Source of the DNA: Alphaproteobacteria bacterium
GTDB lineage: Bacteria; Pseudomonadota; Alphaproteobacteria; JAPYRI01
Direction: 5' to 3'
Assembly (NCBI GenBank): GCA_029941135.1
Contig: JAPYRI010000005.1
Coordinates: forward strand, 1-60,997
DNA: 60,997 bases
Shown: positions 35,452-60,617 of the stretch, piece by piece
Layout: every line of letters begins with the position of its first letter
Numbering within the stretch: the first letter of the stretch is position 1
Program-made: the position numbers and the translations under genes
The notes under the pieces: model-generated
The model's database searches: none
What the model saw: only the letters and a program-made list of their open reading frames with translations
What the model was told of the DNA's origin: nothing

Positions 35452-37857
35452 TTATTCTGCGGCTTGCCGATTCTGTTGAATCAGTTTCCAGATGACATTG
35501 GGACGCAGGGGCAGTTCCGTGATTTCGACACCCAAGGGTTCAAGAGCATCAGTGACCGCATTGGACAATGCACCCGGGACCGGTCCCGGAACACCTTCAC
35601 CGATACCACGGCTGCCCAAGGGCGTATAGGGACAGGGGGTCGGCGCATGGGTGACTTCAACATGCGGCACGTCAGCCGCCGTCGCCAATTTGTAGTTTTC
35701 CAGTGTGCTGGTCAATTGCTGACCTGTGTCATCGTAGACAAATTCCTCAAAAATGCAGTTTGAGATGCCTTGAACGACACCACCGGTAATTTGACCATCG
35801 ACAATCTGCGGGTTTATCACCCGGCCCATATCTTCCGATGTCATATAGCGCTTAATCTCGAATTGTCCTGTCGTTGCATCAACTTCAACAATCGCTGCAT
35901 GCGCGGCAAAACAGATCATTGGCATCGCCGCTTCAAAATAAGCCGTGTGCTCAAGACCGGCTTCCTCACCCTCGGGCAAATCCAGTGGTGTCATAACAAT
36001 ACGATAGGCAAGTTCAGCGAAAGTAGTTCGAATGTTTGTGTCTTTCCGATAAATAATTTCGCCATCGATGAAATCGAAATCTTCCGGTTTGGCACTCACC
36101 GAAAAATCATGCGCCGCAATCCGGCTCATCTTTTCCTTGATGTGACGGCACGCTTGGGCCACCGCACTCAATTTGTAGGAACCTGCGCGCGCGCCAATGG
36201 TGCCGCAGCCAAACGGCGTGTTATCCGTATCGCCTTGGCTGTGTTTCACATCGTCCGGAGAAATTCCCATCTCGTGCGCAACCACCTGAGCGACCGTGGT
36301 TTCATGGCCCTGCCCTTGCGAGCAATCGCCGTCGCACACTTGAACTTTTCCCCTCGGATCGACTCGCACCATCGCCGCGCCATAACCGGGTTGATTTTCC
36401 ATTTGAACCAAAACTTCGGACGCCATCCCCGACGCTTCCGCGCCTAGCCCGAAACCAATGCCCAAATAACGACCCTGCTTTCGCGCCTCTTCTTGCTCCC
36501 GGCGAAAACCGGTGAGGTCAATTTTTTCAACCAGATTGTCCAATACCTTTATAAAATTGCCGCTGTCGTAGTTAAAGCCGGTGGCCGTGGTGTACGGAAA
36601 TTCGGTGACTAAGTTCATACGTTGGACCGCCGTCGGCTCCAGACCGAGCTCGCGCGCCACTGTGTGCATTGCGCGCTCCATGGCAAATCGCGCAGGATAA
36701 GATCCGAACGACCGCGCCGGCGACAACACTGCCTTATTGGTAAAGGCCACTTTCAACTTTATGTCGCAATTGGGAATGTCATAGCCGCTGGGCAACAGCA
36801 CCGCGCCCAAAAACGGCATCAGGTAACCCCAATAAACCCCTTCACAGCCATCGCCGCCATCGGCGATTATGCGATCGCGCAATGCCAAGATGCGGCCATC
36901 CGAGCGGGCGGCAATTTCCAGATCATGTATTTGATCCCGCTCCTGGCTGATCGACATGAGATGTTCTTCACGGCTTTCGATCCAGCGTACTGGCCGGCCA
37001 AGTTTTCTCGCCATGTGGCAAATCAATATGGGTTCGCGATAGAACGGCGCTTTGGTGCCGAAGGCGCCTCCTTGGTCGCGCGGCGCCATAACGCGCACTT
37101 GCTCAGCCGGAATACTGAGAATGTCGGATAGCGCAAGCCGATCAATGTGCGGGCGCTGTGTCGTAATCCAGGCACTAAGTCCTTCGGCATGATCCCAATC
37201 GGCGACCACCCCCCGCGGCTCCATGGGCGTGACCCCGCAACGGTGACAACGGTACCGACGTTTAACCACCAAGTCGGCTTCTTCGAATATTTTTGCCACG
37301 CGGACGTCGTTGGCCTCTTGATCGGCAATTTCCTCGCCACCGGTAAGCGATGATTCGTATTGAATATTATCGTCAAACTGTTCGTGCACGCGGGTGGCGT
37401 CGGGGGCCAGTGCCGCTTCCATGTCTCCCACATAGGGCAGCATTTCATAGTCCACCATGACAAGTTCAGCGGCGTCTTCGGCTACGTATTTATCCCTGGC
37501 GACAATTGCCGCGACTGGTTCCCCATGAAATTTGACTTTGCCGATGGCCAAGGGGCCGAAAGTGGGGTGATTGGCCGGAATGTTGGGCACCACGATCGGC
37601 TGGGGCATGAGCAAAATTTCTTCCGCCAATTGCTTGCCCGCGATTACAGCGACAACGCCCTTGAGCTCTTCGGCTGCTGACGTGTCAATGTTTACTATTT
37701 TTGCGTGGGCATGCAGGCTGCGGACAAACACCAAATGAAGCATGCCGGGCAGTTGAATGTCGCCGATGAAATTGCCTTTGCCCGTGGTCAAACGATAATC
37801 TTCCTTACGCTTTAGCTTGCGTCCCAGCCACCCTTTGCCCGCCTCGGTATCGGTCAT
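35452..37857 (-). CDS. Xanthine oxidase family Mo-hydroxylase, molybdopterin-binding large subunit (CoxL-like, not CODH)
   Basis: RKEDYRL.TGKG, GGAFGTK, QGQGHET, INPQIVDGQITGG and SRGIGE. Active-site loop reads PARSFG. Confidence 0.9.
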   Translation of the reverse strand: MTDTEAGKGWLGRKLKRKEDYRLTTGKGNFIGDIQLPGMLHLVFVRSLHAHAKIVNIDTSAAEELKGVVAVIAGKQLAEEILLMPQPIVVPNIPANHPTFGPLAIGKVKFHGEPVAAIVARDKYVAEDAAELVMVDYEMLPYVGDMEAALAPDATRVHEQFDDNIQYESSLTGGEEIADQEANDVRVAKIFEEADLVVKRRYRCHRCGVTPMEPRGVVADWDHAEGLSAWITTQRPHIDRLALSDILSIPAEQVRVMAPRDQGGAFGTKAPFYREPILICHMARKLGRPVRWIESREEHLMSISQERDQIHDLEIAARSDGRILALRDRIIADGGDGCEGVYWGYLMPFLGAVLLPSGYDIPNCDIKLKVAFTNKAVLSPARSFGSYPARFAMERAMHTVARELGLEPTAVQRMNLVTEFPYTTATGFNYDSGNFIKVLDNLVEKIDLTGFRREQEEARKQGRYLGIGFGLGAEASGMASEVLVQMENQPGYGAAMVRVDPRGKVQVCDGDCSQGQGHETTVAQVVAHEMGISPDDVKHSQGDTDNTPFGCGTIGARAGSYKLSAVAQACRHIKEKMSRIAAHDFSVSAKPEDFDFIDGEIIYRKDTNIRTTFAELAYRIVMTPLDLPEGEEAGLEHTAYFEAAMPMICFAAHAAIVEVDATTGQFEIKRYMTSEDMGRVINPQIVDGQITGGVVQGISNCIFEEFVYDDTGQQLTSTLENYKLATAADVPHVEVTHAPTPCPYTPLGSRGIGEGVPGPVPGALSNAVTDALEPLGVEITELPLRPNVIWKLIQQNRQAAE

Positions 37858-38324
37858 GCCATTTTCTCCGCCGCGCTTTTAATCGCTGTAACAATATTTA
37901 CGTAGCCCGTGCATCGGCACAGATTTCCAATCAAAGCTTCGCGTATTTCATCTTCCGACGGATCTGGATTTTCCTTCAAAAACTCTTCCGCATTCATCAA
38001 AATTCCGGGGGTGCAATAGCCGCACTGAAGGGCGTGGTGCTCGTTAAACTCTTCCTGCAGGGGATGCAATTTGCCGTCCTGCGCCAATCCTTCGACCGTG
38101 GCCACCTCATGGCCATCTGCTTGGACAGCGAGCATCAGGCATGATTTAACCGCTTCGCTGTCGATCTGTATGGTGCAGGCGCCACATACACCCTCATACG
38201 TACACCCGACATGTGTGCCAGTGAGGCCGGCCACGTCGCGAATAAAATCCACCAGTAACAAGCGCACCGGAATGTGTTCTTGATACTCTTCACCATTAAT
38301 GGTGATGGTTACATCTTTGTACAT
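37854..38324 (-). CDS. Mo-hydroxylase 2x[2Fe-2S] small subunit (CoxS-like)
   Basis: GCTYEGVCGACT...SC, QCGYCTPG and NLCRCTGY. Confidence 0.95.
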   Translation of the reverse strand: MYKDVTITINGEEYQEHIPVRLLLVDFIRDVAGLTGTHVGCTYEGVCGACTIQIDSEAVKSCLMLAVQADGHEVATVEGLAQDGKLHPLQEEFNEHHALQCGYCTPGILMNAEEFLKENPDPSEDEIREALIGNLCRCTGYVNIVTAIKSAAEKMA

Positions 38325-38352
38325 CTAACTTAAATTTCCCCCAGTTACCGCA

Positions 38353-39237
38353 CTAACTCCCGGTTTCCGCGCGATTGAACGCCGTGGCTGTTACTTCCTT
38401 GCCCAATTCCCGCATGAGCAAGCGGCGATAGTCTTCGTCAGCCCACATGTCAGCTTGAACTTCTAGTTCTGCGGCCGCCGCCTCGAACGCTTCACCGATT
38501 TTGCTGGTTTCGTCTGCCCTTGCACCAATCAAAACTTGCTCCGCTGCCGCCGATCGGCAGGGCCCATCACCTAAGCCACTGAAGGCAACGCGCGCCCGCA
38601 GGCAAATACCGGCCGCATCGGTCTGCACCAACACGGCGACCCCGACCACCGGCAAGGCGTCCGCCACCAATCCCCACTTTTTGTAGGCGCTCCCCGTATT
38701 TGGTTCGGGTGTCGGCAAAGTCACCGCCACCAAGATCTCATTGTCTTCACGCGCAGTCTCCAAGGGTGATCCCAGAAAATCATCCGCAACCAAAGTTCTT
38801 TTCGCACCCGTGCGCGAGACCAGTTCGACGCTTGCGCCTATGCCCAGACAAGCCGCTGGCGTGCACGCGGCAATGTAATTCCAACAAAGACTGCCACCAA
38901 TTGTTCCGCGATTGCGGACTTGCCGGTCACCAACATGGGCCGCCGCGTCAACAAGGGCTCCATAGGCGCCACGTAGTTTGTCGGCATTGGCCATCTCACG
39001 GTAGCGGGTCATGGCGCCAATGCGCAGACCCGTATCATCACTGGAAATGCCCTTAATTTCAGATACATCCTGCAAATCGACCAGGCAGGATGGTGACACC
39101 AGTCGCGACTTTATGGCTTGCATCAAACTCATGCCGCCGGCAATAAACATCGCGTCTTCGCCCCCGTCGACGATGGCTGCAATTGCTTCATCGACAGATT
39201 TTGGCCGAACGTAGTTATCAATGACGGAGGGGTACAT
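38353..39237 (-). CDS. Mo-hydroxylase FAD-binding medium subunit (CoxM-like)
   Basis: IAGGMSL, IGAMT and QVRNRGTIGGSL. Confidence 0.9.
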   Translation of the reverse strand: MYPSVIDNYVRPKSVDEAIAAIVDGGEDAMFIAGGMSLMQAIKSRLVSPSCLVDLQDVSEIKGISSDDTGLRIGAMTRYREMANADKLRGAYGALVDAAAHVGDRQVRNRGTIGGSLCWNYIAACTPAACLGIGASVELVSRTGAKRTLVADDFLGSPLETAREDNEILVAVTLPTPEPNTGSAYKKWGLVADALPVVGVAVLVQTDAAGICLRARVAFSGLGDGPCRSAAAEQVLIGARADETSKIGEAFEAAAAELEVQADMWADEDYRRLLMRELGKEVTATAFNRAETGS

Positions 39238-39417: not shown

Positions 39418-40620
39418 ATGACCGTAGACACTGTCCTTCCGAATACTCAAATCCCGAGTTACGAACTGTCTACCGATCAGATAGAAATTCGCGATCAGGC
39501 GCTCAAATTTTTCATGTCTGAATTCCACCCCTTGCAAGAGCGGATGGATAACGAGGACTGGTGGCCCGAGCATGCCATCCCGAAGTTGGGAGAAATGGGT
39601 TACTTGGGTCAAACAGTTGGCGAAGAATACGGCGGCGCGGGTCTCGATTACTTGACGTCAAGTGTCATAGCGGAAGTCATGACTTACGCCAATCCGGCCA
39701 TTGCCTTCAGTTGGCTTGGTCATGACAACCTGTGCCTCAACAATATTTATCGCAGCGGCAATGAAGATCAACGCAATCGTTATGTCCCAAAAATGTGTTC
39801 GGGCGAGTGGATTGGCGCATTGGGAATGACTGAGCCGGGAGCGGGATCGGATGCATTGGGGTCCATGCGAACGCGGGCGCGGCGTGAGGGCGATCATTAC
39901 GTCTTGAACGGTACCAAGATATTCATCACCAATGGACCGATCGCCGACGTGCTTTTGGTCTACGCCAAAACCGATATGGAAAAAGGCACGCGGGGTATCT
40001 CCGCCTTTATCGTTGAAAAGGGCTTCGAAGGTTTCCGGGTCGCGCAAAAACTGGACAAAATGGGATTTCGCGGCAGTCCCCTGGGCGAATTGGTGTTCGA
40101 CGACTGCATAGTACCGGTCGAAAACCTGGTCGGTGAAGAAAATCAGGGAGCGCGCATTATGATGACGGGCCTCGACATCGAACGCGCGATGGCGGTTCCT
40201 TTTGCCATTGGCATTGGCCAACGGGCTCTCGACCTCGCGCTTGATTACGCTCAAACTAGAGAACAATTTGGCAAAACGATCTCAAACTTTCAGATGATTC
40301 AGTCGAAGCTTGCAGAAATGTATATTAGGCTGGAAGCCGCCCGCTCTTTTGCTTACCGGGCAATTAGGGCGTGTGATAATATGCCCCATGGTGAAACCGG
40401 CCGTGGTGATATCCACAAATTGACCGCCGCGGCCCTATTTCATTCGGCGGAAGCGGCAACGTTTATCGCCGATGAGGCCGTTCAAATCCACGGTGGGATG
40501 GGGTATATGCGGGAAACCGAGGTCAATCGCTTGTACCGTTGTACAAAGGTCCTCGAGATCGCCGCTGGCACACAAGAAGTTCGCAAAATGATTATTGCCG
40601 GTGAAATGCTGAAAGGCTAA
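39418..40620 (+). CDS. Acyl-CoA dehydrogenase, isovaleryl-CoA dehydrogenase-like
   Basis: GMTEPGAGSD, LNGTKIFITNG, LDIER (IVD-type catalytic Glu), QIHGGMGY and EIAAGTQE (no MCAD-position Glu). Confidence 0.88.
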   Translation: MTVDTVLPNTQIPSYELSTDQIEIRDQALKFFMSEFHPLQERMDNEDWWPEHAIPKLGEMGYLGQTVGEEYGGAGLDYLTSSVIAEVMTYANPAIAFSWLGHDNLCLNNIYRSGNEDQRNRYVPKMCSGEWIGALGMTEPGAGSDALGSMRTRARREGDHYVLNGTKIFITNGPIADVLLVYAKTDMEKGTRGISAFIVEKGFEGFRVAQKLDKMGFRGSPLGELVFDDCIVPVENLVGEENQGARIMMTGLDIERAMAVPFAIGIGQRALDLALDYAQTREQFGKTISNFQMIQSKLAEMYIRLEAARSFAYRAIRACDNMPHGETGRGDIHKLTAAALFHSAEAATFIADEAVQIHGGMGYMRETEVNRLYRCTKVLEIAAGTQEVRKMIIAGEMLKG

Positions 40621-40657: not shown

Positions 40658-41911
40658 ATGGAAGACGTTTACATCATTGGCGCCTCATCAACTCGTTTTC
40701 AGAAATGGCCGGAAAAATCGTACAAAGAACTGACCCGCGAAGCTTATCTGGCGGCCCTGGAAGATGCCGGGATGGCAGAGGGCGGCCCGATCCAAAGCGC
40801 ATGGTTTGGTAATTGCGGCATGTGGACGGAGAAACAGGGCTCAATACGCGGCCAGGTATGCTTCACCCCCCTCGTCCGCGAAGGTTTGTTTCCCGAACGG
40901 GTCCCAATGATCAATGTAGAAAGCGGGTGCGCAACTGCCTCAATGGCGTTGAACGGCGCCTGGAAGGACATTGTCAGCGGCCAATCCAACATGGCCATCG
41001 CCATGGGTGTTGAAAAAACCTACTTCCCTGACGCGCCGGAAAACACGGCAGCCCTCTACAATGGCGGCATAGATCAGTTCAACCCGGAAGAATGGCAAGC
41101 TTATTATGCTGCTGCCGGCGACACTGCCGGCAAGCCTTTTGAACCCGGTTCGGACCGCACCATATTCATGGACACCTACGCCATGCAGGCATGCTTCCAC
41201 ATGAAAAAATATGGCACAACCCAGCGACAAATTGCCGCGAGCGCAGCAAAAAACCATCGCAACGGGGTGGATAACCCCAAAGCGCAATACAGTTTTAATC
41301 TAACCATCGACAAAGTATTGGAAGACCGGCCGGTCACCTATCCGCTCACCCGATCCATGTGCGCGCCTACCGGCGACGGCGCTGCTGCGGCCATCGTCTG
41401 CTCGGGAAGCTATTTGAAGACATTGCCCAGCGAAGTTCAGGAGCGTGCGGTAAAGATCGCGGCAACCACATTAAGCGGCGGCAAATACAGAACGTTGGAC
41501 GAACCTGGTCTCAGCCGCACGGCTGCCGAAAAAGCATACAAAATGGCCGACTTGGCGCCTGATGATATGGATGTCGCCGAAGTGCACGACGCAACTTCGT
41601 TCTGCGAGATTTATCAGTGTGAAATGATGGGGTTCGCCGAAGAGGGCAAGGGCGGTCAGCTGGTTGAGAGCGGCGGCACTTCGAATGGCGGCAAGATACC
41701 CGTCAACATGTCGGGCGGCCTGGTCTCGAAAGGACATCCGGTGGGCGCAACCGGTCTTTCCATGATCGACGAGCTTACCACGCAATTGCGCGGCGAAGCC
41801 GGTGTACGACAAGTTGAAGGCGCACGCCGGGCTTTGGCCGAAAACGGGGGTGGGGTCATCGGATTTGACGAAGCCGCCTGCTCGGTGATTATTCTGGAAA
41901 AGACGACTTAG
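40658..41911 (+). CDS. SCP2/SCP-x-type thiolase family protein
   Basis: ESGCATAS (Cys), DGAAA, EVHDAT, KGHPVGATG and ENGGG. Confidence 0.85.
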   Translation: MEDVYIIGASSTRFQKWPEKSYKELTREAYLAALEDAGMAEGGPIQSAWFGNCGMWTEKQGSIRGQVCFTPLVREGLFPERVPMINVESGCATASMALNGAWKDIVSGQSNMAIAMGVEKTYFPDAPENTAALYNGGIDQFNPEEWQAYYAAAGDTAGKPFEPGSDRTIFMDTYAMQACFHMKKYGTTQRQIAASAAKNHRNGVDNPKAQYSFNLTIDKVLEDRPVTYPLTRSMCAPTGDGAAAAIVCSGSYLKTLPSEVQERAVKIAATTLSGGKYRTLDEPGLSRTAAEKAYKMADLAPDDMDVAEVHDATSFCEIYQCEMMGFAEEGKGGQLVESGGTSNGGKIPVNMSGGLVSKGHPVGATGLSMIDELTTQLRGEAGVRQVEGARRALAENGGGVIGFDEAACSVIILEKTT

Positions 41912-41929
41912 CTGACGAGAGGCCTCTCG

Positions 41930-43168: not shown

Positions 43169-43213
43169 TTCAGCCCTCATATTGAAAATTTGGACGTATC
43201 CTAACCCAAACGC

Positions 43214-43267
43214 CTGCGGGCAAACAGCCGCAGACAATCATTGACATTTAAGTTCGATATTACGAAC
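43214..43267. promoter_or_regulatory. Divergent P450/IclR promoter with two inverted repeats and a TTGACA hexamer (candidate IclR operator)
   Basis: CTGCGG-N8-CCGCAG (43214-43233), TTGACA (43241-43246) and GTTCG-N6-CGAAC (43252-43267). Confidence 0.4.
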
Positions 43268-52966: not shown

Positions 52967-52972
52967 TTCGGA

Positions 52973-54700
52973 ATGGAGTCGGCTGAGAACAAGAGGTCCG
53001 AGAACAAATGGGTAATGCGGCTCGACGGTGCGACCTTGCCCGACCGCGATCTGATCGGCGGTAAGGCGTGGAGCATAGCACGCCTGCGCAACCTGGGCTT
53101 GCCCACTTCACCCGCCGTTGCGGCTACCACCGAGGCATGCCGTGCCTTTATGAAAACTGGTGATCTCCCCGCTGGCCTGATGGACGAGCTTCGTGTCGGC
53201 ATTGAAGAGATTGAACACGAGACCGGACGAAAGTTTGGTGGCACTGAACATCCCTTGCTGGTCGCGGTCAGATCGGGTGCGCCGATCAGCATGCCAGGCA
53301 TGATGGACACAGTGCTCAATTTAGGCATGACAGATGCGGTCGAACTGGCACTGGCACAAGAAAGCGGCGATCCGGAATTTGCCGCCGACACCCGGCGTCG
53401 ATTTCTCGAACTTTACGACACCATTGTGCTCAAAAATTCCGGTGCCGAGGTGCCGGAAACTGCCGACGCGCAGTTGGCAGGTGCCGTACGCGCCGTGTTT
53501 GAGTCGTGGAATTCCCGGCGCGCTAAACGTTATCGCAAACACAACGGCATCCCCGACGACCTTGGTACAGCGGTTACAATTCAGGCCATGGTGTTCGGAA
53601 ACCTAGACGATCAGAGCGGCACTGGTGTTTTATTCAGCCGCAATCCCTTGACCGGCGACCCCGCACCCTACGGCGAATATCTCGCTTGTGCGCAAGGAGA
53701 AGACGTGGTGTCAGGCAAAGTGACGCCGCAGCCGCTTTCCGCCCTAGAGGCCGCCCAACCGGGCGCCCACAAAGAATTGTTGAAGGCGGCCGCCTTATTG
53801 GAGTGTGAAAGCGGCGACGTTCAGGATATCGAGTTCACCATCCAACAGGGCAAATTGTATTTGCTCCAATCGCGGTCGGCCAAAAGATCGCCCTCTGCGG
53901 CCGTTCGCTTTGCCATCGATTTCGTGCGCGAAGGAAAGATCGACAAAAGTGAAGCCTTGCGCCGGGTGACATCCGAACAAATACGCACTTTGCTTCGCCC
54001 GCGTCTTGAAGACGGAGCTGACAACCGCCCTAAGCCTGTCGCGGTAGGTGAAGCTGCTTGTCAGGGTGTTGGTGTTGGTGTTGTCGTGACCGCCGCGGAC
54101 AGCGCCGAGGCCGAAGCCGCAAAGGGCCACAAAGTTATACTTGCCCGCCCCACCACCAGCCCCGAAGACGTGCATGGCATGCTGGTTGCCGAAGCCGTCA
54201 TCACCGAACAAGGGGGGCCAACTTCCCATGCAGCGGTGGTCAGTCGGGCGTTGGGTTTACCCTGTGTGGTCGGATGCGGCGATGGTGCGTTGACCAACCT
54301 CGGTGGCCAGACTGTCACCGTGGATGGCGAAAAAGGGCACGTTTATGACGCGGTATTACCGGTAAAAGTGCCGGACGAAAGGGAAGAAGGCGGCCTCAGC
54401 GACCTCATTAATTGGGCTTCTGAGATTTCCCCCGTGGTGGTGTACAGCGCTTCTGACGCCCTACCTGAAAGTCTAGGTGATGCCGACATTGTTGATTTGG
54501 ATCACTTGACCGATGGTGAAGACTCCGATCATATCGCTCGCTTACTTAATGGTGCGATTGCTGCCCGGGGCAGCATCCTGAATTCGGACGCAGGCGTGTC
54601 CGCCGCGATAAGATCCGGTGTCAAAACCATCATTGTCCGCCACACCCTACCGGCCCTCCTGGCCGCGTGCGCGAATACGGATACCATTACAGAAACTTGA
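52973..54700 (+). CDS. Truncated pyruvate phosphate dikinase-like protein (ATP-grasp and phospho-His domains, no PEP/pyruvate barrel)
   Basis: GGKA, VRSGAPISMPGMMDTVLNLG, QAMVFGN, AQGEDVVSG, QDIEFT..GKLYLLQSR and GGPTSHAAVV. Only 575 aa; none of the C-terminal PPDK motifs are present. Confidence 0.88.
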   Translation: MESAENKRSENKWVMRLDGATLPDRDLIGGKAWSIARLRNLGLPTSPAVAATTEACRAFMKTGDLPAGLMDELRVGIEEIEHETGRKFGGTEHPLLVAVRSGAPISMPGMMDTVLNLGMTDAVELALAQESGDPEFAADTRRRFLELYDTIVLKNSGAEVPETADAQLAGAVRAVFESWNSRRAKRYRKHNGIPDDLGTAVTIQAMVFGNLDDQSGTGVLFSRNPLTGDPAPYGEYLACAQGEDVVSGKVTPQPLSALEAAQPGAHKELLKAAALLECESGDVQDIEFTIQQGKLYLLQSRSAKRSPSAAVRFAIDFVREGKIDKSEALRRVTSEQIRTLLRPRLEDGADNRPKPVAVGEAACQGVGVGVVVTAADSAEAEAAKGHKVILARPTTSPEDVHGMLVAEAVITEQGGPTSHAAVVSRALGLPCVVGCGDGALTNLGGQTVTVDGEKGHVYDAVLPVKVPDEREEGGLSDLINWASEISPVVVYSASDALPESLGDADIVDLDHLTDGEDSDHIARLLNGAIAARGSILNSDAGVSAAIRSGVKTIIVRHTLPALLAACANTDTITET

Positions 54701-54710
54701 GGATTGTGGC

Positions 54711-55193
54711 TTGGATCAAACAAAGAACAATATTCGTGCGCTAGTAAGATTGTTCGAGCAATCGGACTGGGATGAACTACGCGTTGAAACCAAAGACTTA
54801 AAGCTCGTAATTTCGAAAAATGCGAACGCACCTGGCCTGACGGTTTTAGAGAATGCACCACGCACACGATTGCCCAGTACCGCGGACGCCGAAATCACGG
54901 ATGCGACTGAACCCGCCGCCAAAAGCGAACCGGCTGAAATTCCTGAAGGATTGGTGGCGGTGCGGGCACCCAATTTGGGCACCTTTTGGCGCGCCCCCAA
55001 ACCTGGCGCCGCGCCCTATATCGAAGTTGGGCAAAAAGTAAATGCCGACACGATGGTGTGCTTGATCGAAGTGATGAAGTTGTTCACCCCAATAAATGCG
55101 GGAATTGCTGGCACCGTCGTCGAACTTGTCGCTGAGAACAGCGCCATGGTCGAATACGGCGATACCCTTGTCCTCATTGATCCCAGCACTTGA
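54711..55193 (+). CDS. Biotin carboxyl carrier protein
   Basis: APNLGTFWRAPKPG, IEVMKL (biotin Lys) and VEYG. TTG at 54711 follows GAGG. Confidence 0.92.
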   Translation: MDQTKNNIRALVRLFEQSDWDELRVETKDLKLVISKNANAPGLTVLENAPRTRLPSTADAEITDATEPAAKSEPAEIPEGLVAVRAPNLGTFWRAPKPGAAPYIEVGQKVNADTMVCLIEVMKLFTPINAGIAGTVVELVAENSAMVEYGDTLVLIDPST

Positions 55194-55214
55194 TCTGGAC
55201 GAGCACCTAATCTC

Positions 55215-56585
55215 ATGAACCTCTCGCGTGTATTTGTCGCCAATCGGGGAGAAATCGCGGTGCGAGTGCTGCGCGCTTGTCGCAAGCTTGAGCTCTCTTC
55301 AGTAATTGGCGTGTCGGAGGCCGACCAGGAAAGCACCGGGGCAATGATGGCTGATCGTGCAATTGTTATAGGCCCAGCTCCCTCAAAGGACAGCTACCTC
55401 AAGCCAGACCTCATCGTTTCGGCAGCGGTAAACAGCGGTTGCGATGCGCTTCATCCTGGCTATGGTTTCTTGTCTGAACGCGGTGAACTGGCCGAAATGT
55501 GTGCCGAAAACGGGATCGCTTTCGTTGGCCCCACAGCCGATACCATTCGTAAAGTGGGCGATAAAATTTCTGCCAGGGAACTAGCCCGCGCGGCCGGAGT
55601 TCCCCTGGTTCCCGGATCCGGCGAAGTGTCCACTGTGGAGCAGGCCAAATCAGCGGCAAGCGACGTGGGTTATCCTATCGTACTGAAAGCGACCGCCGGC
55701 GGCGGCGGGCGTGGTATGGCAGTCGCCCGGGCGGACGAAGACATTGCGAGAACTTTCGACGCCGCGTCCTTAGAAGCCGAAGAAGCGTTCGGCGACGGCA
55801 CTCTTTACGTGGAACGCTTTGTTGAGAACGCCCGCCATGTGGAAGTTCAGATATTGGGTGACGGCAAAGGCAACGTGCTTCATTTCGGCGACCGGGATTG
55901 TTCAGCCCAGCGGCGTTATCAAAAAGTCGTGGAAGAAGCCCCCGCAACTGCTGTGCCGGATGATATTCGCACGAACATGCGTGAAGCTGCCGTGCGCTTG
56001 GCCAAAAGTATCAATTACCGCAATGCGGGCACCGTCGAATTTCTCTACGATCAAAACCACAATGCGTTCTACTTCATCGAAGTGAATGCGCGCATCCAAG
56101 TCGAACATCCGGTCACCGAAGAGATTACCGGCGTTGATCTGGTGGTCGCGCAACTCAAAATCGCGGCCGGCGAACCCCTCGGGTTAACTCAAGACATGAT
56201 CGCACTCAGCGGACACGCCATCGAATGCCGGATCAACGCCGAAATGCCGCTGCGGGACTTCGCGCCATCGCCTGGACGAATTACCGCCTGGTTGCCACCC
56301 GAGGGCGACGGCGTACGTGTCGATAGTCATTGCGAGCAGGGCTACACGGTTCCGCCCTATTATGACAGCATGATTGGGAAGCTGATCGTCCACGGCGCGA
56401 CCCGCACGGAAGCCATATCGCGCATGCGTGGCGCGCTCGCCGATTTCCGCATCGATGGCATACATACCAATACCCACTTGCAAGCCTTTCTGGTGGGCCA
56501 TCGGGATTTCAAAGACAATAAAATTAACACCAAATGGCTGGAGACAACTCTCCTGCCCGCGTATTCAAGCGTAATGGGAGATTAG
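55215..56585 (+). CDS. Biotin carboxylase
   Basis: ANRGEIA, HPGYGFLSE, GGGGRGM, RDCSAQRRYQK, EVNARIQVEHPVTE and YYDSMIGKL. Confidence 0.95.
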   Translation: MNLSRVFVANRGEIAVRVLRACRKLELSSVIGVSEADQESTGAMMADRAIVIGPAPSKDSYLKPDLIVSAAVNSGCDALHPGYGFLSERGELAEMCAENGIAFVGPTADTIRKVGDKISARELARAAGVPLVPGSGEVSTVEQAKSAASDVGYPIVLKATAGGGGRGMAVARADEDIARTFDAASLEAEEAFGDGTLYVERFVENARHVEVQILGDGKGNVLHFGDRDCSAQRRYQKVVEEAPATAVPDDIRTNMREAAVRLAKSINYRNAGTVEFLYDQNHNAFYFIEVNARIQVEHPVTEEITGVDLVVAQLKIAAGEPLGLTQDMIALSGHAIECRINAEMPLRDFAPSPGRITAWLPPEGDGVRVDSHCEQGYTVPPYYDSMIGKLIVHGATRTEAISRMRGALADFRIDGIHTNTHLQAFLVGHRDFKDNKINTKWLETTLLPAYSSVMGD

Positions 56586-56591
56586 ATCGGA

Positions 56592-58061
56592 ATGGCGGTA
56601 ATTGAGTTTCTTGATGAGACCATGCGAGACGGGCAGCAAAGCCTGTGGGGCATGCGCATGCAGGCGGGCATGGCGCTGCCCATTACCCCCACCATCGACA
56701 AGGTTGGTTTTCGGGTCGTTGACCTCACCGGCAGCTCCATGTTCGAAGTGCTGATCCGCCATTGCCAGGAAAACCCCTGGGAGGGCCTCGATCTATTAGT
56801 CAGTTCCATGCCCAACAGCAAAATCCGTGCGGGTATGCGCAGTAACGCGGCAGTGACCTTTGGGGTGACCCCCGACGCTTTAATGGATGTGTGGATGCAT
56901 CAGCTCTGCCGTCACGGCATCAAGAGCATGTGGATTTATGACGTCCTGTTCAACATCGACAAGACCTACCGATTGGCAAAGATCGCCAAGGAATATGATG
57001 TCGAAGTGGCGGGCGCGATCATGTTCACCATGAGCCCCGTGCACACCGACGCACACTACGCAGACAAGGCGCAGAAGCTCGCTGCATGCGCGGATATCGA
57101 CACCCTGTTACTCTACGACACGGCTGGCGTTTTGGGCCCGGAGCGTTTGCGCACCCTGGTGCCGGCTCTCATTGAGCAGGCCAACGGTAAGCCGATCGAA
57201 TTTCACTCGAACAATATACTGGGCGCGTCAGCCATTGCTTATCTGGAGGCGGTCAAGTTGGGCGTCACCATTTTGCATACTGCAAGTCGTCCCATGGCCA
57301 ACGGCCCTTCGGTGCCATCGACCGAGATTATGGTGCGGAACATCGAATTGCTAGGACACAGCCATGGTCTAGATACGTCGTTGTTGCCGCCCATTGCCGA
57401 ACATTTCGAAAAAGTTGCCTCAGCCGCCGGTTTCCCAACAGGCGTGCCCAATGAGTATGATTTGTTTTCAATCGAGCATCAGATCCCCGGCGGCATGGTC
57501 GGCACCTTTAAGGCCCAACTCGATCAGCACAAAATGCCGGAAAAACTGGACGAAGTGCTGGCAGAATCTGCCATCGTCCGGCGCGAACTGGGTTACCCTG
57601 GCATGGCGACCCCGTTTTCGCAATTGGTGGGCACGTTGGCGGTGCTGAACGTGGTGACCGGCAAGCGCTATACAGTCATCCCGGACGAGGTGATCCAATA
57701 CGCCGCCGGATACTACGGTGACCCGGTTGCACCGATCGATCCGAACGTATTGGACATCATTATGGGCTCGGCTCGCGCCAAGGAAATTCTGACCTCTCCG
57801 CCAGCCCAGCCCAGTCTTGAGGACTTAAGAAAAGAGTTCGGCACCGGCGATGACGACGACGAGCTCATCTTGCGGGCTCTGGTTCCCGAAGCCGATCTGG
57901 ATAAAATGCGCGCAGCCGGGCCAGTCAAACAAACTTATCCTATGCTGTCATCGCCAGAGCTTGAATACGCGCGCAAACTGATGGCCAGCACCAGCGCCAA
58001 TTTTCTTGAAATCGAAACCACCGACCTGTCGCTGTCGTTGCGCCGAGGCCCAAACTCTTAG
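56592..58061 (+). CDS. Carboxyltransferase of the pyruvate carboxylase B / oxaloacetate decarboxylase alpha / XccA type, with atypical metal site
   Basis: DETMRDGQQSL, HQIPGGM and LGYPGMATPFSQ. The KD motif reads YD and the HxH motif reads HSN. Confidence 0.85.
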   Translation: MAVIEFLDETMRDGQQSLWGMRMQAGMALPITPTIDKVGFRVVDLTGSSMFEVLIRHCQENPWEGLDLLVSSMPNSKIRAGMRSNAAVTFGVTPDALMDVWMHQLCRHGIKSMWIYDVLFNIDKTYRLAKIAKEYDVEVAGAIMFTMSPVHTDAHYADKAQKLAACADIDTLLLYDTAGVLGPERLRTLVPALIEQANGKPIEFHSNNILGASAIAYLEAVKLGVTILHTASRPMANGPSVPSTEIMVRNIELLGHSHGLDTSLLPPIAEHFEKVASAAGFPTGVPNEYDLFSIEHQIPGGMVGTFKAQLDQHKMPEKLDEVLAESAIVRRELGYPGMATPFSQLVGTLAVLNVVTGKRYTVIPDEVIQYAAGYYGDPVAPIDPNVLDIIMGSARAKEILTSPPAQPSLEDLRKEFGTGDDDDELILRALVPEADLDKMRAAGPVKQTYPMLSSPELEYARKLMASTSANFLEIETTDLSLSLRRGPNS

Positions 58062-58128
58062 AGGGTGATTGCCCGGCCCCCTCAAGACCGCTAGGCTGGA
58101 TGGGTAGGACGCCAACGGGAGGGAAATT

Positions 58129-59349
58129 ATGGCGAATCCGAGCAAGACTCTGTTTTCCGGGTTGCGAATCCTCGACTTGACCCGGGCCGTCGCCGGACCC
58201 ACATGCACGCGCATGTTCTCTGAGCTGGGGGCGGACGTGATTAAAGTGGAGGCTTTTCCGGAAGGTGATCTGACCCGTCAGGTATCCAAAATCAGAAACG
58301 AGCGAAGTCTGTACTTCGTTCAGCAAAATCTTGGCAAAAAAAGCCTATGCGTTGATCTGCGCAATCCGAAAGGTCTGCAATTGGTCAAGGATTTAGTGCC
58401 ATTGGTCGATGTCGTGGTGCAAAACTTCAAGCCCGGGGTGATGGCGTCAATGGGGATGGCCTACGACGATCTGAAGGAGCTAAAGCAAGACATTATCTTG
58501 TGCTCGATATCGTCGCTCGGTCAGACCGGCTCACTTGCTGAAAAGCCCGGCTACGACATGATCGCCCAATCTTACGCGGGCGTAACATCGATGGTCGGTG
58601 ACCCGGACGATGCACCTTGCTTTCCCCAATTGGCGATCGGCGACGTCAGCACCGGTGTCATGGGAGCTTTCTCAGTGCTCGCCGCCCTCTATCACCGGGA
58701 CCGTACCGGCGAAGGTCAACACTTGGACGTGAGCATTCTCGACACTTACTACCATAGCCACGAAGCAAGCGTTCATCAGTACAGCGGCAGCAACGGTAAG
58801 ATCGAACCCAACAGAACCGGTCGCCATATGAATTATTTGGCCCCAGCCGGCGTTTTTCGCGCCAATGGAGGCTATATCACGATCATGTCTTTCCTCCATC
58901 ACTGGAAGGATTTATGCGCGGCAATGGACCGCCCCGAATTGGCAGAAGACGAAAGATTAGGAAACGATGAAGGCCGCCTCGAGAATTTGGATGAAGTCAT
59001 TGAGTTGATCGAAAGCTGGCTCCAGAATTTTCCGGACCGGGATACCGCAATGGACAAACTTGACGAATTTGGTGTGCCGGCGGGCCCTGTCTTAACGATC
59101 GCCGAAACAGTCGCCCATCCTCACCTTCGAGAGCGAGGGACTGTGCGCACAATTGATGATCGGATTGCGGGAAAATTCGAGATCCCCGGCTTGCCGCCGA
59201 AGTTCTCAAAGTTCCCCGACTTGCCCGAGTTCGATGCGCCTACTTTGGGTGAGCACAACGAAGAGATTATAACCAATATCCTGGGTCGTTCAGACGACGA
59301 GCTTGCTGAGTTAAGGAATGCCGGGATCCTAAAAGAGAAAAATATTTGA
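58129..59349 (+). CDS. Class III (CaiB/BaiF) CoA-transferase, copy 1
   Basis: ILDLTRAVAGP, GADVIKVE, NLGKKS, NFKPG, GYD, IGD (catalytic Asp) and PTLGEHN. Confidence 0.93.
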   Translation: MANPSKTLFSGLRILDLTRAVAGPTCTRMFSELGADVIKVEAFPEGDLTRQVSKIRNERSLYFVQQNLGKKSLCVDLRNPKGLQLVKDLVPLVDVVVQNFKPGVMASMGMAYDDLKELKQDIILCSISSLGQTGSLAEKPGYDMIAQSYAGVTSMVGDPDDAPCFPQLAIGDVSTGVMGAFSVLAALYHRDRTGEGQHLDVSILDTYYHSHEASVHQYSGSNGKIEPNRTGRHMNYLAPAGVFRANGGYITIMSFLHHWKDLCAAMDRPELAEDERLGNDEGRLENLDEVIELIESWLQNFPDRDTAMDKLDEFGVPAGPVLTIAETVAHPHLRERGTVRTIDDRIAGKFEIPGLPPKFSKFPDLPEFDAPTLGEHNEEIITNILGRSDDELAELRNAGILKEKNI

Positions 59350-59396
59350 ACGAATAGCGGTTAATCGAATTCAATATTTAGGGGGAAGAAATTATC

Positions 59397-60617
59397 ATGA
59401 CCGGCGCGACTGAACCACTTTTCGAGGGCCTCAAAATACTCGACTTTACACGCGCCCTCGCAGGCCCAACCTGTACCCGCATGTTTGCTGAAATGGGCGC
59501 CGATGTGATCAAGGTCGAGTCGGCGCCAAACGGCGATCTAACCCGTCAAATGTCTAAGATACGGAATGATCGCAGCCTTTATTACATTCAGCAAAATCTT
59601 GGCAAACAAAGTCTTTGTGTAAATTTACGTGACCCTCGCGGCATCGCTCTCATGAAAGAACTCGTTCCCCATATGGATGTGGTGGTTGAAAACTTTAAGC
59701 CGGGCCGGATGGCATCCATGGGACTGGATTATGAAGCGCTCAAAGAACTGAAAGAGGACATCATTCTGTGTTCAATTTCGGCCATGGGGCAAACTGGCCC
59801 GCTGGCAACAAAACCAGGTTACGATTACATCGCCCAAGCCTATACCGGCGTCACTTCCATGATCGGCGATCCTAATGACGCACCCTCTATCCCACTTTTG
59901 GGCATCGGCGATGTCGCCACGGGCGTGCATGGGGCGTTTGCTGTTTTGGCGGCAATTTATCACCGGGAAAGAACCGGTCGGGGGCAGCATTTGGATGTTG
60001 CCCTGGCCGATGTTTATTACCATTGTCACGAAGTGAACGTGCACCAGTACACGGGCAGCAATGGTGAGATTAAGCCGACCCGCGGCGGTCGCCACATGAG
60101 CTACGTGTGCCCGGCTGGGGTGTTTCGCGCCAATGGCGGCGACATCATGATCATGGCGTTTCTCCATCACTTTAAGGATTTATGCGCGGCCATGGACCGC
60201 CCGGAATTGGTCACTAAAGAAGGGTGGACAACCGACCAGGAACGCTTGGCCAGGTTGGATGAAGTTGTGGCACTGGTCGAAACTTGGCTTCAGACTTTTC
60301 CTAGCCACTGGGACGCGATTGCAAAGATGGAAGAGCACGGCGTTCCCGTGGCGCCCATTCTGACCGTAGAAGACACGATCACTCACCCACACTTGCTACA
60401 TCGGGGTACGATCCGCACAATTAACGACCGGCTCGCGGGCGAATTCGGCATTCCCGGGATGCCGATTAAGTTTTCCGAATTTCCTGAGGATTTGCCCTTG
60501 GAGGCTGACACCCTGGGCCAGCACAATGCGCATATAATCACCGAGGTTTTGAATCACAGCGAAGAAGAATTGGCCCAATTACGCGCCGATGGAATATTGA
60601 ACGAAGGGGAGTTCTAA
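59397..60617 (+). CDS. Class III (CaiB/BaiF) CoA-transferase, copy 2
   Basis: Same motifs as copy 1, same 406-aa length and colinear with it. Confidence 0.93.
   Translation: MTGATEPLFEGLKILDFTRALAGPTCTRMFAEMGADVIKVESAPNGDLTRQMSKIRNDRSLYYIQQNLGKQSLCVNLRDPRGIALMKELVPHMDVVVENFKPGRMASMGLDYEALKELKEDIILCSISAMGQTGPLATKPGYDYIAQAYTGVTSMIGDPNDAPSIPLLGIGDVATGVHGAFAVLAAIYHRERTGRGQHLDVALADVYYHCHEVNVHQYTGSNGEIKPTRGGRHMSYVCPAGVFRANGGDIMIMAFLHHFKDLCAAMDRPELVTKEGWTTDQERLARLDEVVALVETWLQTFPSHWDAIAKMEEHGVPVAPILTVEDTITHPHLLHRGTIRTINDRLAGEFGIPGMPIKFSEFPEDLPLEADTLGQHNAHIITEVLNHSEEELAQLRADGILNEGEF

Follow-up and report, generated by a model that had tools for sequence, protein, structure and literature searches.

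A ~25-kb catabolic gene assembly in a marine bacterium and its candidate phosphotransfer-carboxylase module

Gene content and layout

The window (the whole stretch of DNA analysed, 60,997 nucleotides) is an entire contig of a marine bacterium, and the catabolic genes in it are tightly packed. The enzyme families named in an earlier note on this DNA were all found by Pfam and NCBIfam where that note had placed them, although its list omitted an aspartic-protease-like gene at 46839-47546. The co-orientation and short gaps that it described between 43279 and 60617 were likewise borne out: these 16 genes all lie on the + strand and the biggest intergenic gap is 108 nt. The contig ends 380 nt past the last CoA-transferase gene, and the cluster may therefore extend beyond the window. 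The features of the island are:

35452-37857, - strand: molybdenum (Mo-) hydroxylase large subunit, xanthine oxidase/CoxL family (Pfam Ald_Xan_dh_C, MoCoBD_1, MoCoBD_2)
37854-38324, - strand: Mo-hydroxylase 2Fe-2S subunit (Pfam Fer2_2, Fer2)
38353-39237, - strand: Mo-hydroxylase FAD subunit (Pfam FAD_binding_5, CO_deh_flav_C)
39418-40620, + strand: acyl-CoA dehydrogenase, nearest to isovaleryl-CoA dehydrogenases (Pfam; PDB sequence matches)
40658-41911, + strand: SCP2/lipid-transfer-type thiolase (Pfam Thiolase_C_1)
41930-43237, - strand: cytochrome P450, CYP107/109-like (Pfam; PDB sequence matches generic)
43279-44022, + strand: IclR-family regulator, first gene of the co-oriented block (Pfam)
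44019-44795, + strand: crotonase/enoyl-CoA hydratase (Pfam ECH_1)
44796-46424, + strand: B12 acyl-CoA mutase, large subunit (Pfam, NCBIfam)
46439-46834, + strand: B12-binding small subunit of the mutase (Pfam B12-binding, TIGR00640)
46839-47546, + strand: membrane protein with a clan AA (retropepsin-like) aspartic protease domain (Pfam gag-asp_proteas, TIGR02281)
47590-48831, + strand: cytochrome P450 (Pfam; PDB sequence matches generic)
48940-50055, + strand: luciferase-like (F420-type) LLM oxidoreductase (Pfam Bac_luciferase; sub-threshold F420 LLM families)
50012-50794, + strand: small swivel (phospho-His) protein, 260 aa (Pfam PEP-utilizers)
50813-52966, + strand: 717-aa protein with an N-terminal ~510-aa domain, a winged helix and a four-helix bundle (AF2 model, fold searches)
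52973-54700, + strand: 575-aa pyruvate,phosphate dikinase (PPDK) lacking the barrel, with ATP-grasp and swivel-His domains (NF004531)
54618-55193, + strand: biotin carboxyl carrier protein (Pfam Biotin_lipoyl; TIGR00531; EVMKL motif)
55215-56585, + strand: biotin carboxylase (Pfam; NF006367, 640 bits)
56592-58061, + strand: PYC/OadA-type carboxyltransferase with a remodelled metal site (Pfam, NCBIfam, alignment, tree)
58129-59349, + strand: class III CoA-transferase (Pfam CoA_transf_3; NCBIfam)
59397-60617, + strand: class III CoA-transferase, paralogue of the preceding one at 66.6% identity (NCBIfam)

The phosphotransfer-carboxylase module and its occurrence

The six genes at 50012-58061 (module A) encode a phosphotransfer trio followed by a three-part biotin carboxylase. 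The trio had been taken to be PPDK-derived, which holds for the 575-aa protein (NF004531, 693 bits against a cut-off of 456; 387 bits to solved PPDKs, covering PPDK residues 167-544) but not for the 717-aa protein, in which no PPDK-derived part is detectable and which has no Pfam, NCBIfam or PDB sequence match. Like PPDK and PEP synthase, the 575-aa protein combines an ATP-grasp with a swivel-His domain, whose GGxTSHAAVV motif is kept in 25/25 loci; unlike them it has no PEP/pyruvate-binding barrel (Pfam), and it is accompanied by the 717-aa protein and by an extra swivel protein. No rifampin phosphotransferase appears among its solved-structure matches at E <= 1e-10. The extra swivel protein probably starts downstream of 50012, and its GGTVRSHLGIL motif is kept in 24/24 loci.

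The 717-aa protein has 1066 homologues, every one of them named hypothetical. Its AF2 model has a pLDDT of 88.8 overall and 84.8 for the N-terminal ~510-aa domain, for which fold searches returned no representative solved chain above Z 4.3; we regard this domain as a putative phosphoryl-acceptor/substrate domain. In Rhodococcus opacus B4 a single chain of 793 aa is made up of a swivel domain, the novel domain, a winged helix and a C-terminal bundle, and this fusion links the 260-aa and 717-aa proteins as parts of a single unit.

Within the carboxylase, the carrier protein probably starts later than 54618, and the carboxyltransferase is the divergent member. Specifically, the metal-site Asp is kept, while the position of the carbamylated lysine holds Tyr and the HxH motif reads HxN, the second metal His being replaced by Asn; the lysine and one metal His are lost in all 16 proteobacterial copies. 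The enzyme scores under every NCBIfam equivalog cut-off, is 36-40% identical to the enzymes of MarK-linked and AcvAB-linked clusters against 28-33% to those annotated as OadA, and falls in a quick tree into a separate clade (SH-aLRT 98) that adjoins the Acv clade. Since two of the four canonical metal ligands are missing, its chemistry may differ from that of Acv-type enzymes. Active-site substitutions had been claimed for several enzymes of the island; they were confirmed for two, this one and the mutase described below.

Module A is a conserved unit. Of 12 genome loci, nine contain all six genes in unchanged order and three are interrupted by contig ends; two full metagenome loci contain the six genes as well. 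Among 18 loci an AMP-binding CoA ligase accompanies it in 15, a classical thiolase in 11 and an SCP2-type thiolase in four, with homologues of the SCP2-type thiolase of the window (40-48% identity) beside the module in L007, L018, L019 and L029. A SurE-family phosphatase lies divergently upstream in 7/18 loci, and the plasmid copy of Rhodococcus oxybenzonivorans adds an OB-fold protein, an SCP2-type thiolase and a Y_phosphatase3 phosphatase. Further accessory genes in relatives encode an acyl-CoA dehydrogenase, a short-chain dehydrogenase/reductase (SDR), a member of the acetoacetate-decarboxylase family and a Liv-type ABC transporter. Where flanks are GC-rich, open reading frames were chosen longest-first, and some of these calls are spurious. 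The module is rare (1/60 same-class genomes, 0/400 in a sample of the phylum) and occurs on catabolic plasmids. Rhodococcus oxybenzonivorans S2-17 and Novosphingobium resinovorum SA1 are among its cultured carriers. No description of this form of kinase and carboxylase was found in the literature.

A predicted route by phosphorylation and carboxylation

Acetone and acetophenone carboxylases (Acx/Apc) are biotin-independent enzymes of the hydantoinase/oxoprolinase type, and Pfam detects no domain of this type in the island. They carboxylate ketones with ATP via phosphorylated intermediates (PMC13677872). A closer parallel is the Hpe/Acv hydroxyphenylethanone pathway, which consists of phosphorylation, biotin-dependent carboxylation, CoA thioesterification and cleavage (PMC9618137; PMC12624787), so that the statement of the earlier note that no described pathway has this combination is not supported. 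Members of this lignin-ketone pathway, described in 2022, are hpeHICBADEF of Rhodococcus rhodochrous GD02, acvABCDEF of Sphingobium SYK-6 and XccABC of Aromatoleum aromaticum; the order of steps, the three-subunit biotin carboxylase and the PYC-type carboxyltransferase (PMC9618137) are the same as here, the carboxyltransferases form the nearest clade in the quick tree, and a phosphatase is often found near module A in relatives. However, the putative acceptor protein of 717 aa shows no similarity to an AcvA/HpeH-type protein (E 3.7), identity between the ATP-grasp proteins is only 25%, the system of the island has two swivel-His domains, and Acv-type carboxyltransferases keep the carbamylated lysine and the second His that are both replaced in the island enzyme. 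Moreover, the window has CoA-transferases instead of a ligase, and no HpeD-like HAD phosphatase was found in the genome.

Exchange of the kinase within this type of pathway has been documented for MarK (PMC12624787). The MarK-AcvCDEF clusters of Novosphingobium aromaticivorans and of plasmids of Sphingomonas bisphenolicum (pBAR1) and Pseudomonas putida YC-AE1 resemble module A in that one carboxylase type is served by a non-homologous kinase (PMC12624787), but MarK is a single UPF0261/Tm-1-like protein that is found neither in the window nor in the genome. The two-component small-molecule dikinases PpsAB, CreHI and HpeHI and rifampin phosphotransferase share with module A the concept of an ATP-grasp, a swivel His and a separate small-molecule acceptor domain (PMC12167813), but their acceptor resembles the rifampin-binding domain, whereas the modelled N-terminal domain of the 717-aa protein matches no representative solved chain above Z 4.3. 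CreHI acts together with the P450 CreJ (PMC9549646), and P450 genes likewise lie near the kinase in the window. A further precedent proposed earlier, a PEP-synthase-like kinase of 25-hydroxysteroid catabolism, is not supported, as that enzyme is a monomeric member of the phosphotransferase family with a mass of 43 kDa (PMC8449060).

The reading that we put forward, with about even confidence, is that the ~25 kb are an assembly specific to this lineage, in which at least two catabolic modules, each conserved on its own, and oxidative accessory genes form an operon-like block, and that module A phosphorylates and then carboxylates a ketone by the logic of Hpe/Acv, with a different kinase and a divergent carboxyltransferase. 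Observation covers the gene content, the conservation of the modules, the domain make-up and the states of the motifs; we infer the chemical steps, all of them, and likewise the substrate of the island. The 575-aa protein would move a phosphoryl group from ATP onto its own swivel histidine, from where it would pass, directly or via the second swivel-His protein, to a substrate held on the novel domain of the 717-aa protein. The biotin carboxylase would then carboxylate the phosphorylated ketone beside the carbonyl to give a beta-keto acid, which would be activated by the two class III CoA-transferases, presumably replacing the AMP-forming ligase of most relatives. A thiolase would finally yield acetyl-CoA and an acyl- or aroyl-CoA; the SCP2-type enzyme at 40658-41911 is the likely candidate for cleaving the beta-ketoacyl-CoA formed downstream of the carboxylase. 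By analogy with Hpe/Acv, the phosphate on a hydroxyl would serve as a handle that is later removed: HpeCBA carboxylates the ketone only in its phosphorylated form, and the phosphate is taken off by HpeD (PMC9618137). This removable-handle version is incomplete here, because the window has no phosphatase gene and tblastn of the 95%-complete genome found no homologue of HpeD-like HAD, MarK or Y_phosphatase3; the sole SurE of the genome lies on another contig (C38).

These absences (none in the window, and the three types tested missing from the genome) would be expected if, instead, the system worked as PPDK does on pyruvate and phosphorylated the enol of a ketone without a hydroxyl handle, and if the phosphoenol-ketone were the nucleophile for the carboxyltransferase, with release of the phosphate. 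The true PPDK lineage of the 575-aa protein, the loss in all proteobacterial copies of the lysine and one His that bind the pyruvate-enolising metal, and the aliphatic type of the accessory genes in relatives point the same way, and module A would then use biotin to carboxylate plain ketones of the aliphatic, isoprenoid or aryl methyl type. We nevertheless consider this rather unlikely: the SurE or Y_phosphatase3 genes beside the module in relatives fit a retained phosphate, the characterized relatives of the carboxylase class all use substrates phosphorylated on a phenolic hydroxyl (PMC9618137), and spending both an enol phosphate and the ATP of biotin carboxylase on one carboxylation would look redundant.

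The B12 mutase module and the island as a whole

Module B (43279-46834) comprises the IclR regulator, the crotonase and the split B12 mutase. The mutase has separate large and small subunits, as methylmalonyl-CoA mutase (MCM) and 2-hydroxyisobutyryl-CoA mutase (Hcm) can have, and the best solved matches of its large subunit are HcmA (486 bits) and human MCM (447 bits). Read from the alignment, the positions that we take to be Tyr89 and Arg207 of MCM are kept, whereas that of Tyr243 is Ala, within an IAGAH motif found in 119/120 best homologues, and the position presumed to be Asp117 of Hcm is also Ala. Module B would process a carboxylate-bearing acyl-CoA bigger than methylmalonyl-CoA, which may or may not be derived from the products of module A.

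The earlier note had joined both modules in one pathway that degrades a bulky branched, cyclic or aromatic compound by hydroxylation, phosphorylation, carboxylation, CoA activation, B12 rearrangement and beta-oxidation. The unbroken block of co-oriented genes is in line with this, as are the succinyl-CoA-dependent type of the CoA-transferases (NCBIfam) and the mutase itself, whose carboxylate-binding Arg and widened pocket could suit a substituted succinyl- or malonyl-CoA after carboxylation. However, comparison across genomes, which upheld the unit of phosphotransfer, carboxylase and CoA activation, separated the mutase from it and does not support one conserved pathway over the 25 kb. Module B stands without module A in 5/5 other genomes carrying the mutase, with no module-A genes within the 11-20 kb fetched; the crotonase adjoins the mutase in all five, the IclR gene lies upstream in 2/5, four of the five have their own CoA-transferase, and one (G530) has an ABC transporter. 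Conversely, module A occurs without mutase, LLM enzyme or Mo-hydroxylase in all other genome and metagenome loci examined except L014, a P450 being otherwise met only as a weak match (31%) in the plasmid locus L029, next to crotonase matches, and the single same-class copy has no mutase match nearby. The whole island is shared with that one metagenome contig, L014, in which gene order is fully kept between the thiolase and the second CoA-transferase (17 genes, 68-93% protein identity); because L014 is such close kin, its synteny is weak evidence either way. The island also lacks a gene for the MeaB chaperone, homologues of which lie on contigs C12, C56 and C72. A single linear pathway is therefore quite improbable, although the tight packing and the full L014 synteny would fit a functional tie between modules B and A within this lineage.

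If module A were instead a variant of central PEP-pyruvate-oxaloacetate metabolism, in which a PPDK fragment and a split pyruvate carboxylase used pyruvate or some other 2-oxo acid, this would account for the top-scoring named families, pyruvate,phosphate dikinase and pyruvate carboxylase subunit B/OadA, but such a role is scarcely credible given the absent barrel, the sub-cut-off carboxyltransferase with its lost ligands, the constant company of a CoA ligase or transferase and a thiolase, the rare and patchy distribution and the location on catabolic plasmids.

In the assembly of modules that we favour, the P450s, the LLM enzyme and the Mo-hydroxylase would probably prepare the substrate by oxidation. 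The large subunit of the Mo-hydroxylase scores under the cut-off of every NCBIfam equivalog and has a 55% identical paralogue on contig C40, and a CofE homologue is present in the genome alongside the F420-type LLM enzyme. For the acyl-CoA dehydrogenase the top five PDB sequence matches are all isovaleryl-CoA dehydrogenases (337-368 bits), the best at 368 bits against 281 for the best chain not so named. The aspartic-protease-like gene is kept in L014 only.

Composition of the island

The island (35452-60617) is a composite, and its core probably serves phosphorylation-dependent biotin carboxylation of ketones, a kind of pathway already known from the hydroxyphenylethanone (Hpe/Acv) systems, whereas the architecture of its kinase appears to be new and its carboxyltransferase (CT) belongs to a distinct clade. 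The claim in an earlier note that no pathway of this combination has been described is not supported. Ketones are chemically inert, and few biological ways of activating them are known to us; to our knowledge, the route in which they are phosphorylated and then carboxylated was recognised only in 2022, so far just for lignin-derived hydroxyphenyl ketones and with two kinase types. The cluster points to a third kinase type, with a central family made up entirely of hypothetical proteins and a confident structural model that has no solved-fold match.

ORF listing and family scans recovered every gene that the earlier note had named at the coordinates it gave. The region 43279-60617 indeed holds sixteen co-oriented plus-strand genes (longest-ORF calls), with gaps of at most 108 nt and several overlaps; one gene, for a membrane protein, had been left out of the note.

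43279-46834, plus strand: module B (IclR regulator, crotonase, split B12 mutase)
46839-47546, plus strand: membrane protein carrying an aspartic-protease domain of clan AA (TIGR02281), within the operon-like block and flanked by the small subunit of the mutase and a P450
50012-58061, plus strand: module A (260-aa swivel-His protein, 717-aa protein, 575-aa truncated pyruvate,phosphate dikinase (PPDK), BCCP, biotin carboxylase, CT)

The acyl-CoA dehydrogenase has isovaleryl-CoA dehydrogenases as its nearest solved proteins, the two class III CoA-transferases are paralogues (66.6% identity), and the two P450s match PDB sequences only in a generic, CYP107/109-like way that gives no substrate hint. 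The last CoA-transferase gene ends 380 nt before the contig does, so the cluster may extend further. GC content shows no clear island boundary in the window, and a promoter and terminator scan of 41800-60997 gave no more sites than shuffled sequence (11 vs 11.5; 24 vs 23.4), which makes it uninformative on operon structure. The contig (C5) is the whole window and belongs to a genome bin of 3.02 Mb (178 contigs, 95% complete). The 24 listed runs with near-identical DNA come from 18 studies, and each bears the label of a marine or hydrothermal-vent metagenome; ten of the runs each contain half or more of the sampled words, one may be the source sample, and none of the runs listed for 47590-57589 is an RNA run.

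The single ~25-kb pathway with a B12 rearrangement step that had been proposed is not supported. Specifically, a mutase homologue (68-71% identical) was found in 5 of 200 other genomes of the same class (L040-L044), flanked in all five by a crotonase and the small subunit, followed in four by a class III CoA-transferase about 30% identical to the window's, and preceded in two by an IclR gene ahead of the crotonase and mutase; none of the module-A genes lies within the 11-20 kb fetched around it. Homologues of the mutase, the LLM oxidoreductase and the Mo-hydroxylase are likewise absent from the module-A loci examined other than L014; of these loci, L029 alone has a weak P450 match (31%) and crotonase matches. 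L014, a metagenome contig of 22 kb, keeps the complete run of 17 genes that begins with the thiolase and ends with the second CoA-transferase (68-93% identity), and since it is such close kin its synteny says little on function. Judged by these neighbourhoods, module B, together with a class III CoA-transferase, is a conserved stand-alone unit, independent of module A. The clan AA membrane-protein gene is conserved in L014 alone.

Among the residues that we take to be substrate contacts of methylmalonyl-CoA mutase (Propionibacterium numbering), of which Tyr89 and Arg207 presumably bind the carboxylate, the large subunit keeps Tyr89 (RQYSGF), Arg207 (VARGTW) and His244, and has Ala for Tyr243 (IAGAH). 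The contact set is thus incomplete, and the NF006944 equivalog model scores 553 bits against a cut-off of 876. The IAGAH motif recurs in 119 of the best 120 homologues (70-90% identity); module B, whose mutase has Ala at the Tyr243 position throughout, would merit a substrate screen as a second, so far uncharacterised unit. Genome G530, one of the five, has genes for an ABC transporter of Liv type and for a 2-oxoacid:ferredoxin oxidoreductase near the mutase locus. The genome under study has further mutase paralogues, and MeaB homologues on contigs C12, C56 and C72, with none in the window; at C12:33577-38186 the MeaB homologue adjoins three more class III CoA-transferase paralogues, and C12 also carries an LLM paralogue 56% identical to the window's. 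A homologue of the F420 ligase CofE is encoded at C29:25979-26635.

The putative kinase of module A and its spread

The 575-aa protein is a truncated PPDK (NF004531, 693 bits vs a cut-off of 456), which aligns with solved PPDKs at 387 bits over PPDK residues 167-544 and so retains both the ATP-grasp and swivel domains, the latter with its catalytic His. The PEP/pyruvate barrel was not found: the match to PPDK stops at residue 544, and PEP-utilizers_C matches none of the three trio proteins. The catalytic motif GGxTSHAAVV is present in 25/25 loci covering it, some of them duplicates of one contig, and the 260-aa protein contributes a second, divergent swivel domain with the motif GGTVRSHLGIL (24/24 loci).

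The 717-aa protein has no match among Pfam, NCBIfam or PDB sequences. AlphaFold predicts its structure with confidence (pLDDT 88.8 over the full length; 84.8, with a pTM of 0.88, for the N-terminal domain alone), and the model contains a winged helix at residues 517-588 (Z about 10.7 to MarR proteins) and a four-helix bundle at 590-714. With the whole model, Foldseek returned nothing from the PDB at E <= 0.001, and VIA-align matches were confined to the C-terminal winged helix and helical bundle. The N-terminal domain of ~510 aa reached a best VIA Z of 4.3 among 48,161 representative solved chains, a lack of match that is no proof of a new fold, nor of a fold different from that of the rifampin-binding domain. 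A protein atlas gave no usable match for residues 1-512.

A natural fusion argues that the 260-aa and 717-aa proteins belong together. Plasmid pROB02 of Rhodococcus opacus B4 encodes a 793-aa protein that joins, in one chain, a swivel domain, a homologue of the N-terminal domain (26% identity to the window's, E 6e-20), a winged helix and, at 33%, the C-terminal bundle, and the two window proteins accordingly belong to one unit. The idea that the C-terminal 200 aa are a mere fused MarR-type repressor was rejected, as the domain also lies inside the fused Rhodococcus protein; this part may nevertheless bind DNA. The same pROB02 locus (L028, 1-13725) has a truncated PPDK and a P450, dehydrogenases for alcohol and for aldehyde, a gene of the Tyr-phosphatase family and two phosphotransferases of the APH/ecdysteroid-kinase type. 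It has no biotin carboxylase, hence this kinase type also serves outside carboxylation pathways. On plasmid pRB98 of Rhodococcus oxybenzonivorans (L027), a second, more distant kinase-type gene set lies just upstream of the module at 7902-12272 (swivel protein of 125 aa, hypothetical of 398 aa, PEP-utilizing enzyme of 542 aa, hypothetical of 381 aa), which suggests a wider family of such multi-part kinases.

The nearest described system is the Hpe pathway of Rhodococcus rhodochrous GD02, with a kinase, a biotin carboxylase, a phosphatase, a CoA ligase and a cleavage enzyme, to which acvABCDEF of Sphingobium SYK-6 is homologous; HpeHI transfers phosphate to 4-hydroxyacetophenone or acetovanillone at the phenolic hydroxyl, HpeCBA accepts only the phosphorylated ketone for carboxylation, and HpeD takes the phosphate off (PMC9618137). 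HpeHI, which has two components, is homologous to rifampin phosphotransferase (PMC12167813), and in Novosphingobium aromaticivorans the same carboxylase is served by MarK, a non-homologous UPF0261 kinase (PMC12624787). Clusters of the MarK type occur on plasmids of Sphingomonas bisphenolicum (pBAR1) and Pseudomonas putida YC-AE1, and one of the AcvAB type on a Rhizobium leguminosarum plasmid, whose AcvAB-type pair was the reference for comparison. The window kinase differs from this two-component dikinase of the RPH type, in which HpeH/AcvA holds the acceptor and swivel parts and HpeI/AcvB the ATP-grasp: the 717-aa protein shows no similarity to the AcvA/HpeH type (best E 3.7), the 260-aa protein resembles the pair over a swivel stretch of 52 aa only (E 2e-6), and the 575-aa protein is 25% identical to the AcvB/HpeI type in the ATP-grasp only (E 7e-9). 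Such weak or absent similarity indicates that the module-A kinase is a third type beside HpeHI/AcvAB and MarK. The earlier note had also invoked a PEP-synthase-like kinase of 25-hydroxysteroid catabolism as a precedent, which has to be dropped, the Sterolibacterium enzyme being described as a 43.3-kDa monomer of the phosphotransferase family (PMC8449060; PMC11061730). A description of the module-A form was not found in the open-access papers searched; the cluster lists in SI Fig. S5 (PMC9618137) and Datasets S2/S3 (PMC12624787) may already show the arrangement.

Homologues of the 717-aa protein number 1066 at E <= 0.001 in a collection of 5.8 billion proteins, every named one hypothetical, and occur either fused (~720 aa, for instance in Burkholderia and Paraburkholderia) or split (~520 aa). 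A profile of the N-terminal domain retrieved 535, 334 and 111 of 1.84 billion cluster representatives at E <= 1e-3, 1e-10 and 1e-30. Its distribution over genome representatives is rare and patchy: the protein was found in 1/60 genomes of the same class, and it is absent from the one sister genus and, at E <= 1e-30, from an even phylum sample (0/400). The sole same-class carrier, G049, has the module in two opposed parts ~14 kb apart (C1:1895180-1913656; L045, L046), one with the swivel protein and a 518-aa protein, the other with a 200-aa protein, PPDK, BCCP, biotin carboxylase and CT.

The order of the six genes (swivel protein, acceptor protein, truncated PPDK, BCCP, biotin carboxylase, CT) is kept in 9/12 loci of species-representative genomes, the other three being cut by contig ends. 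Metagenome loci agree with it: L021 is complete, and L023 and L025 begin inside the module (L020 and L006 seem to be one contig). Most relatives have the 717-aa gene in two pieces, of 518 aa and 200 aa, separated by the gene of an AMP-binding CoA ligase. When flanking ORFs were clustered over 18 loci (chosen longest-first, so that some calls in GC-rich DNA are spurious), a CoA ligase was found at 15, a classical thiolase after the CT at 11, a SurE-family phosphatase divergent and upstream of the module at seven, an SCP2-type thiolase resembling the window's at four, and GntR regulators, SDRs and acetoacetate-decarboxylase-family genes at three to four each; NCBIfam names for four of the module's neighbours in relatives (ligase, thiolase, dehydrogenase, SDR) point to no specific substrate. 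Catabolic plasmids of cultured Rhodococcus and Novosphingobium strains carry the module, which makes it testable at the bench; the cultured carriers are Rhodococcus oxybenzonivorans S2-17 (pRB98), Rhodococcus pyridinivorans and Novosphingobium resinovorum SA1. On pRB98 the genes after the module encode an OB-fold protein, a thiolase of the SCP2 type and a phosphatase of the Y_phosphatase3 family.

The carboxyltransferase and its relatives

All parts of a three-subunit biotin carboxylase are encoded in the window: BCCP, biotin carboxylase and a PYC_OADA/HMGL-like CT. The CT is 46-75% identical to other module-A copies, 36-40% to Acv-type enzymes and 28-33% to annotated OadA. In a quick IQ-TREE search with 27 sequences, the 18 module-type sequences form one clade (SH-aLRT 98); two of them come from Rhodococcus, and for one of these the 19 kb fetched contain no kinase gene. 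This clade lies beside the Acv clade (SH-aLRT 100) and not inside it, and the kinase-less and OadA sequences are placed elsewhere.

The metal ligands of the pyruvate-carboxylase CT are, as we take them to be, Asp, a carbamylated Lys and two His. The alignments do not show this full pyruvate carboxylase/OadA site in the window CT: here and in 16/16 proteobacterial module copies the positions hold Asp, Tyr for Lys, His, and Asn for the second His, which bears out the altered active sites that the earlier note had pointed to. The two Rhodococcus copies have Glu, His and His at the carbamyl-Lys and two His positions, and Lys, His and His are kept in all nine Acv-type, kinase-less and OadA sequences. 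The altered metal site separates the module clade even from the Acv/Hpe enzymes.

Kinase-less clusters of CT, BCCP and biotin carboxylase in the same CT superfamily were met on plasmids of Cnuibacter physcomitrellae (L050, 6926-13610) and Burkholderia sp. THE68 (L049, 1064-13530) and at L053 and L054. After the Cnuibacter cluster come BioY, 3-oxoacid CoA-transferase A/B and a thiolase, and the Burkholderia cluster has acetoacetate decarboxylase, an acetate symporter and carbonic anhydrase as neighbours. These four clusters are candidates for carboxylating small ketones, for example acetone, with the help of biotin; a 2026 paper states that no enzyme of this sort is yet known (PMC13677872). The window differs from the hydantoinase-type, biotin-independent acetone/acetophenone carboxylases, as no hydantoinase/oxoprolinase-type Pfam family occurs among the 20 island proteins scanned.

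Proposed route and its rival

The best-supported reading of module A, by analogy, is a route like that of Hpe. ATP would charge the swivel His of the truncated PPDK, and the phosphoryl group would pass to a substrate hydroxyl at the novel domain, possibly via the second swivel His. The biotin carboxylase would then add CO2 beside the ketone, the paired class III transferases would add CoA, and the thiolase would cut the resulting beta-ketoacyl-CoA. The neighbouring P450 and F420-type LLM could supply the ketone by oxidation of an alkyl side chain. CreJ presumably acts on a phosphorylated substrate. A precedent for cooperation of a kinase and a P450 is offered by CreHI-CreJ (PMC9549646).

The weak points of this Hpe-like route are the phosphatase and the changed CT metal site. 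The Hpe/Acv pathways have a dedicated HAD phosphatase (HpeD/AcvF), whereas relatives of the module carry SurE or Y_phosphatase3 instead. The window holds no HAD gene and tblastn with the cluster HAD protein against the genome under study gave nothing at E <= 1e-4; homologues of MarK and Y_phosphatase3 are absent from window and genome, and SurE is present there as a single copy outside the window. The lack of HAD and Y_phosphatase3 homologues, the distant position of SurE and the remodelled metal site all favour a rival, an enol-phosphate route in which the PPDK-derived system phosphorylates the enol of the ketone and the CT uses the enol phosphate as nucleophile. We nevertheless regard this route as unlikely; the phosphatase genes that accompany the module in relatives agree with a phosphate that is retained. 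In its full form it would make module A a third class of multi-component small-molecule dikinase, composed of the PPDK-derived ATP-grasp/swivel protein, the second swivel-His protein and the ~510-aa acceptor domain without a solved fold match, which hands a phosphoenol-ketone to a biotin CT with a remodelled metal site; this joint proposal is equally doubtful. Biotin-dependent ketone carboxylases are, according to the 2026 paper, known for 4-hydroxyacetophenone-type substrates only (PMC13677872). If true, the proposal would provide the first biotin-dependent carboxylation of ketones without a phenolic handle, for instance marine aliphatic or isoprenoid methyl ketones, and an alternative to the acetone/acetophenone carboxylase class.

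The observation made in the earlier note stands, and its interpretation is partly supported. Identifying the substrate would give the carbon turnover of sea and soil a further pathway, and enzymology a new phosphotransfer domain.

Two other gene groups lie in the window, outside the island. One, at 25895-32845, is a quinohemoprotein amine dehydrogenase cluster with an alpha subunit that includes a haem domain, a maturase of the radical-SAM type, an ORF of 402 aa that matches no Pfam family, and an ABC exporter. The other, at 3965-7706, comprises TonB, ExbB-like and DUF3450 genes and fits a Gram-negative outer-membrane uptake system.
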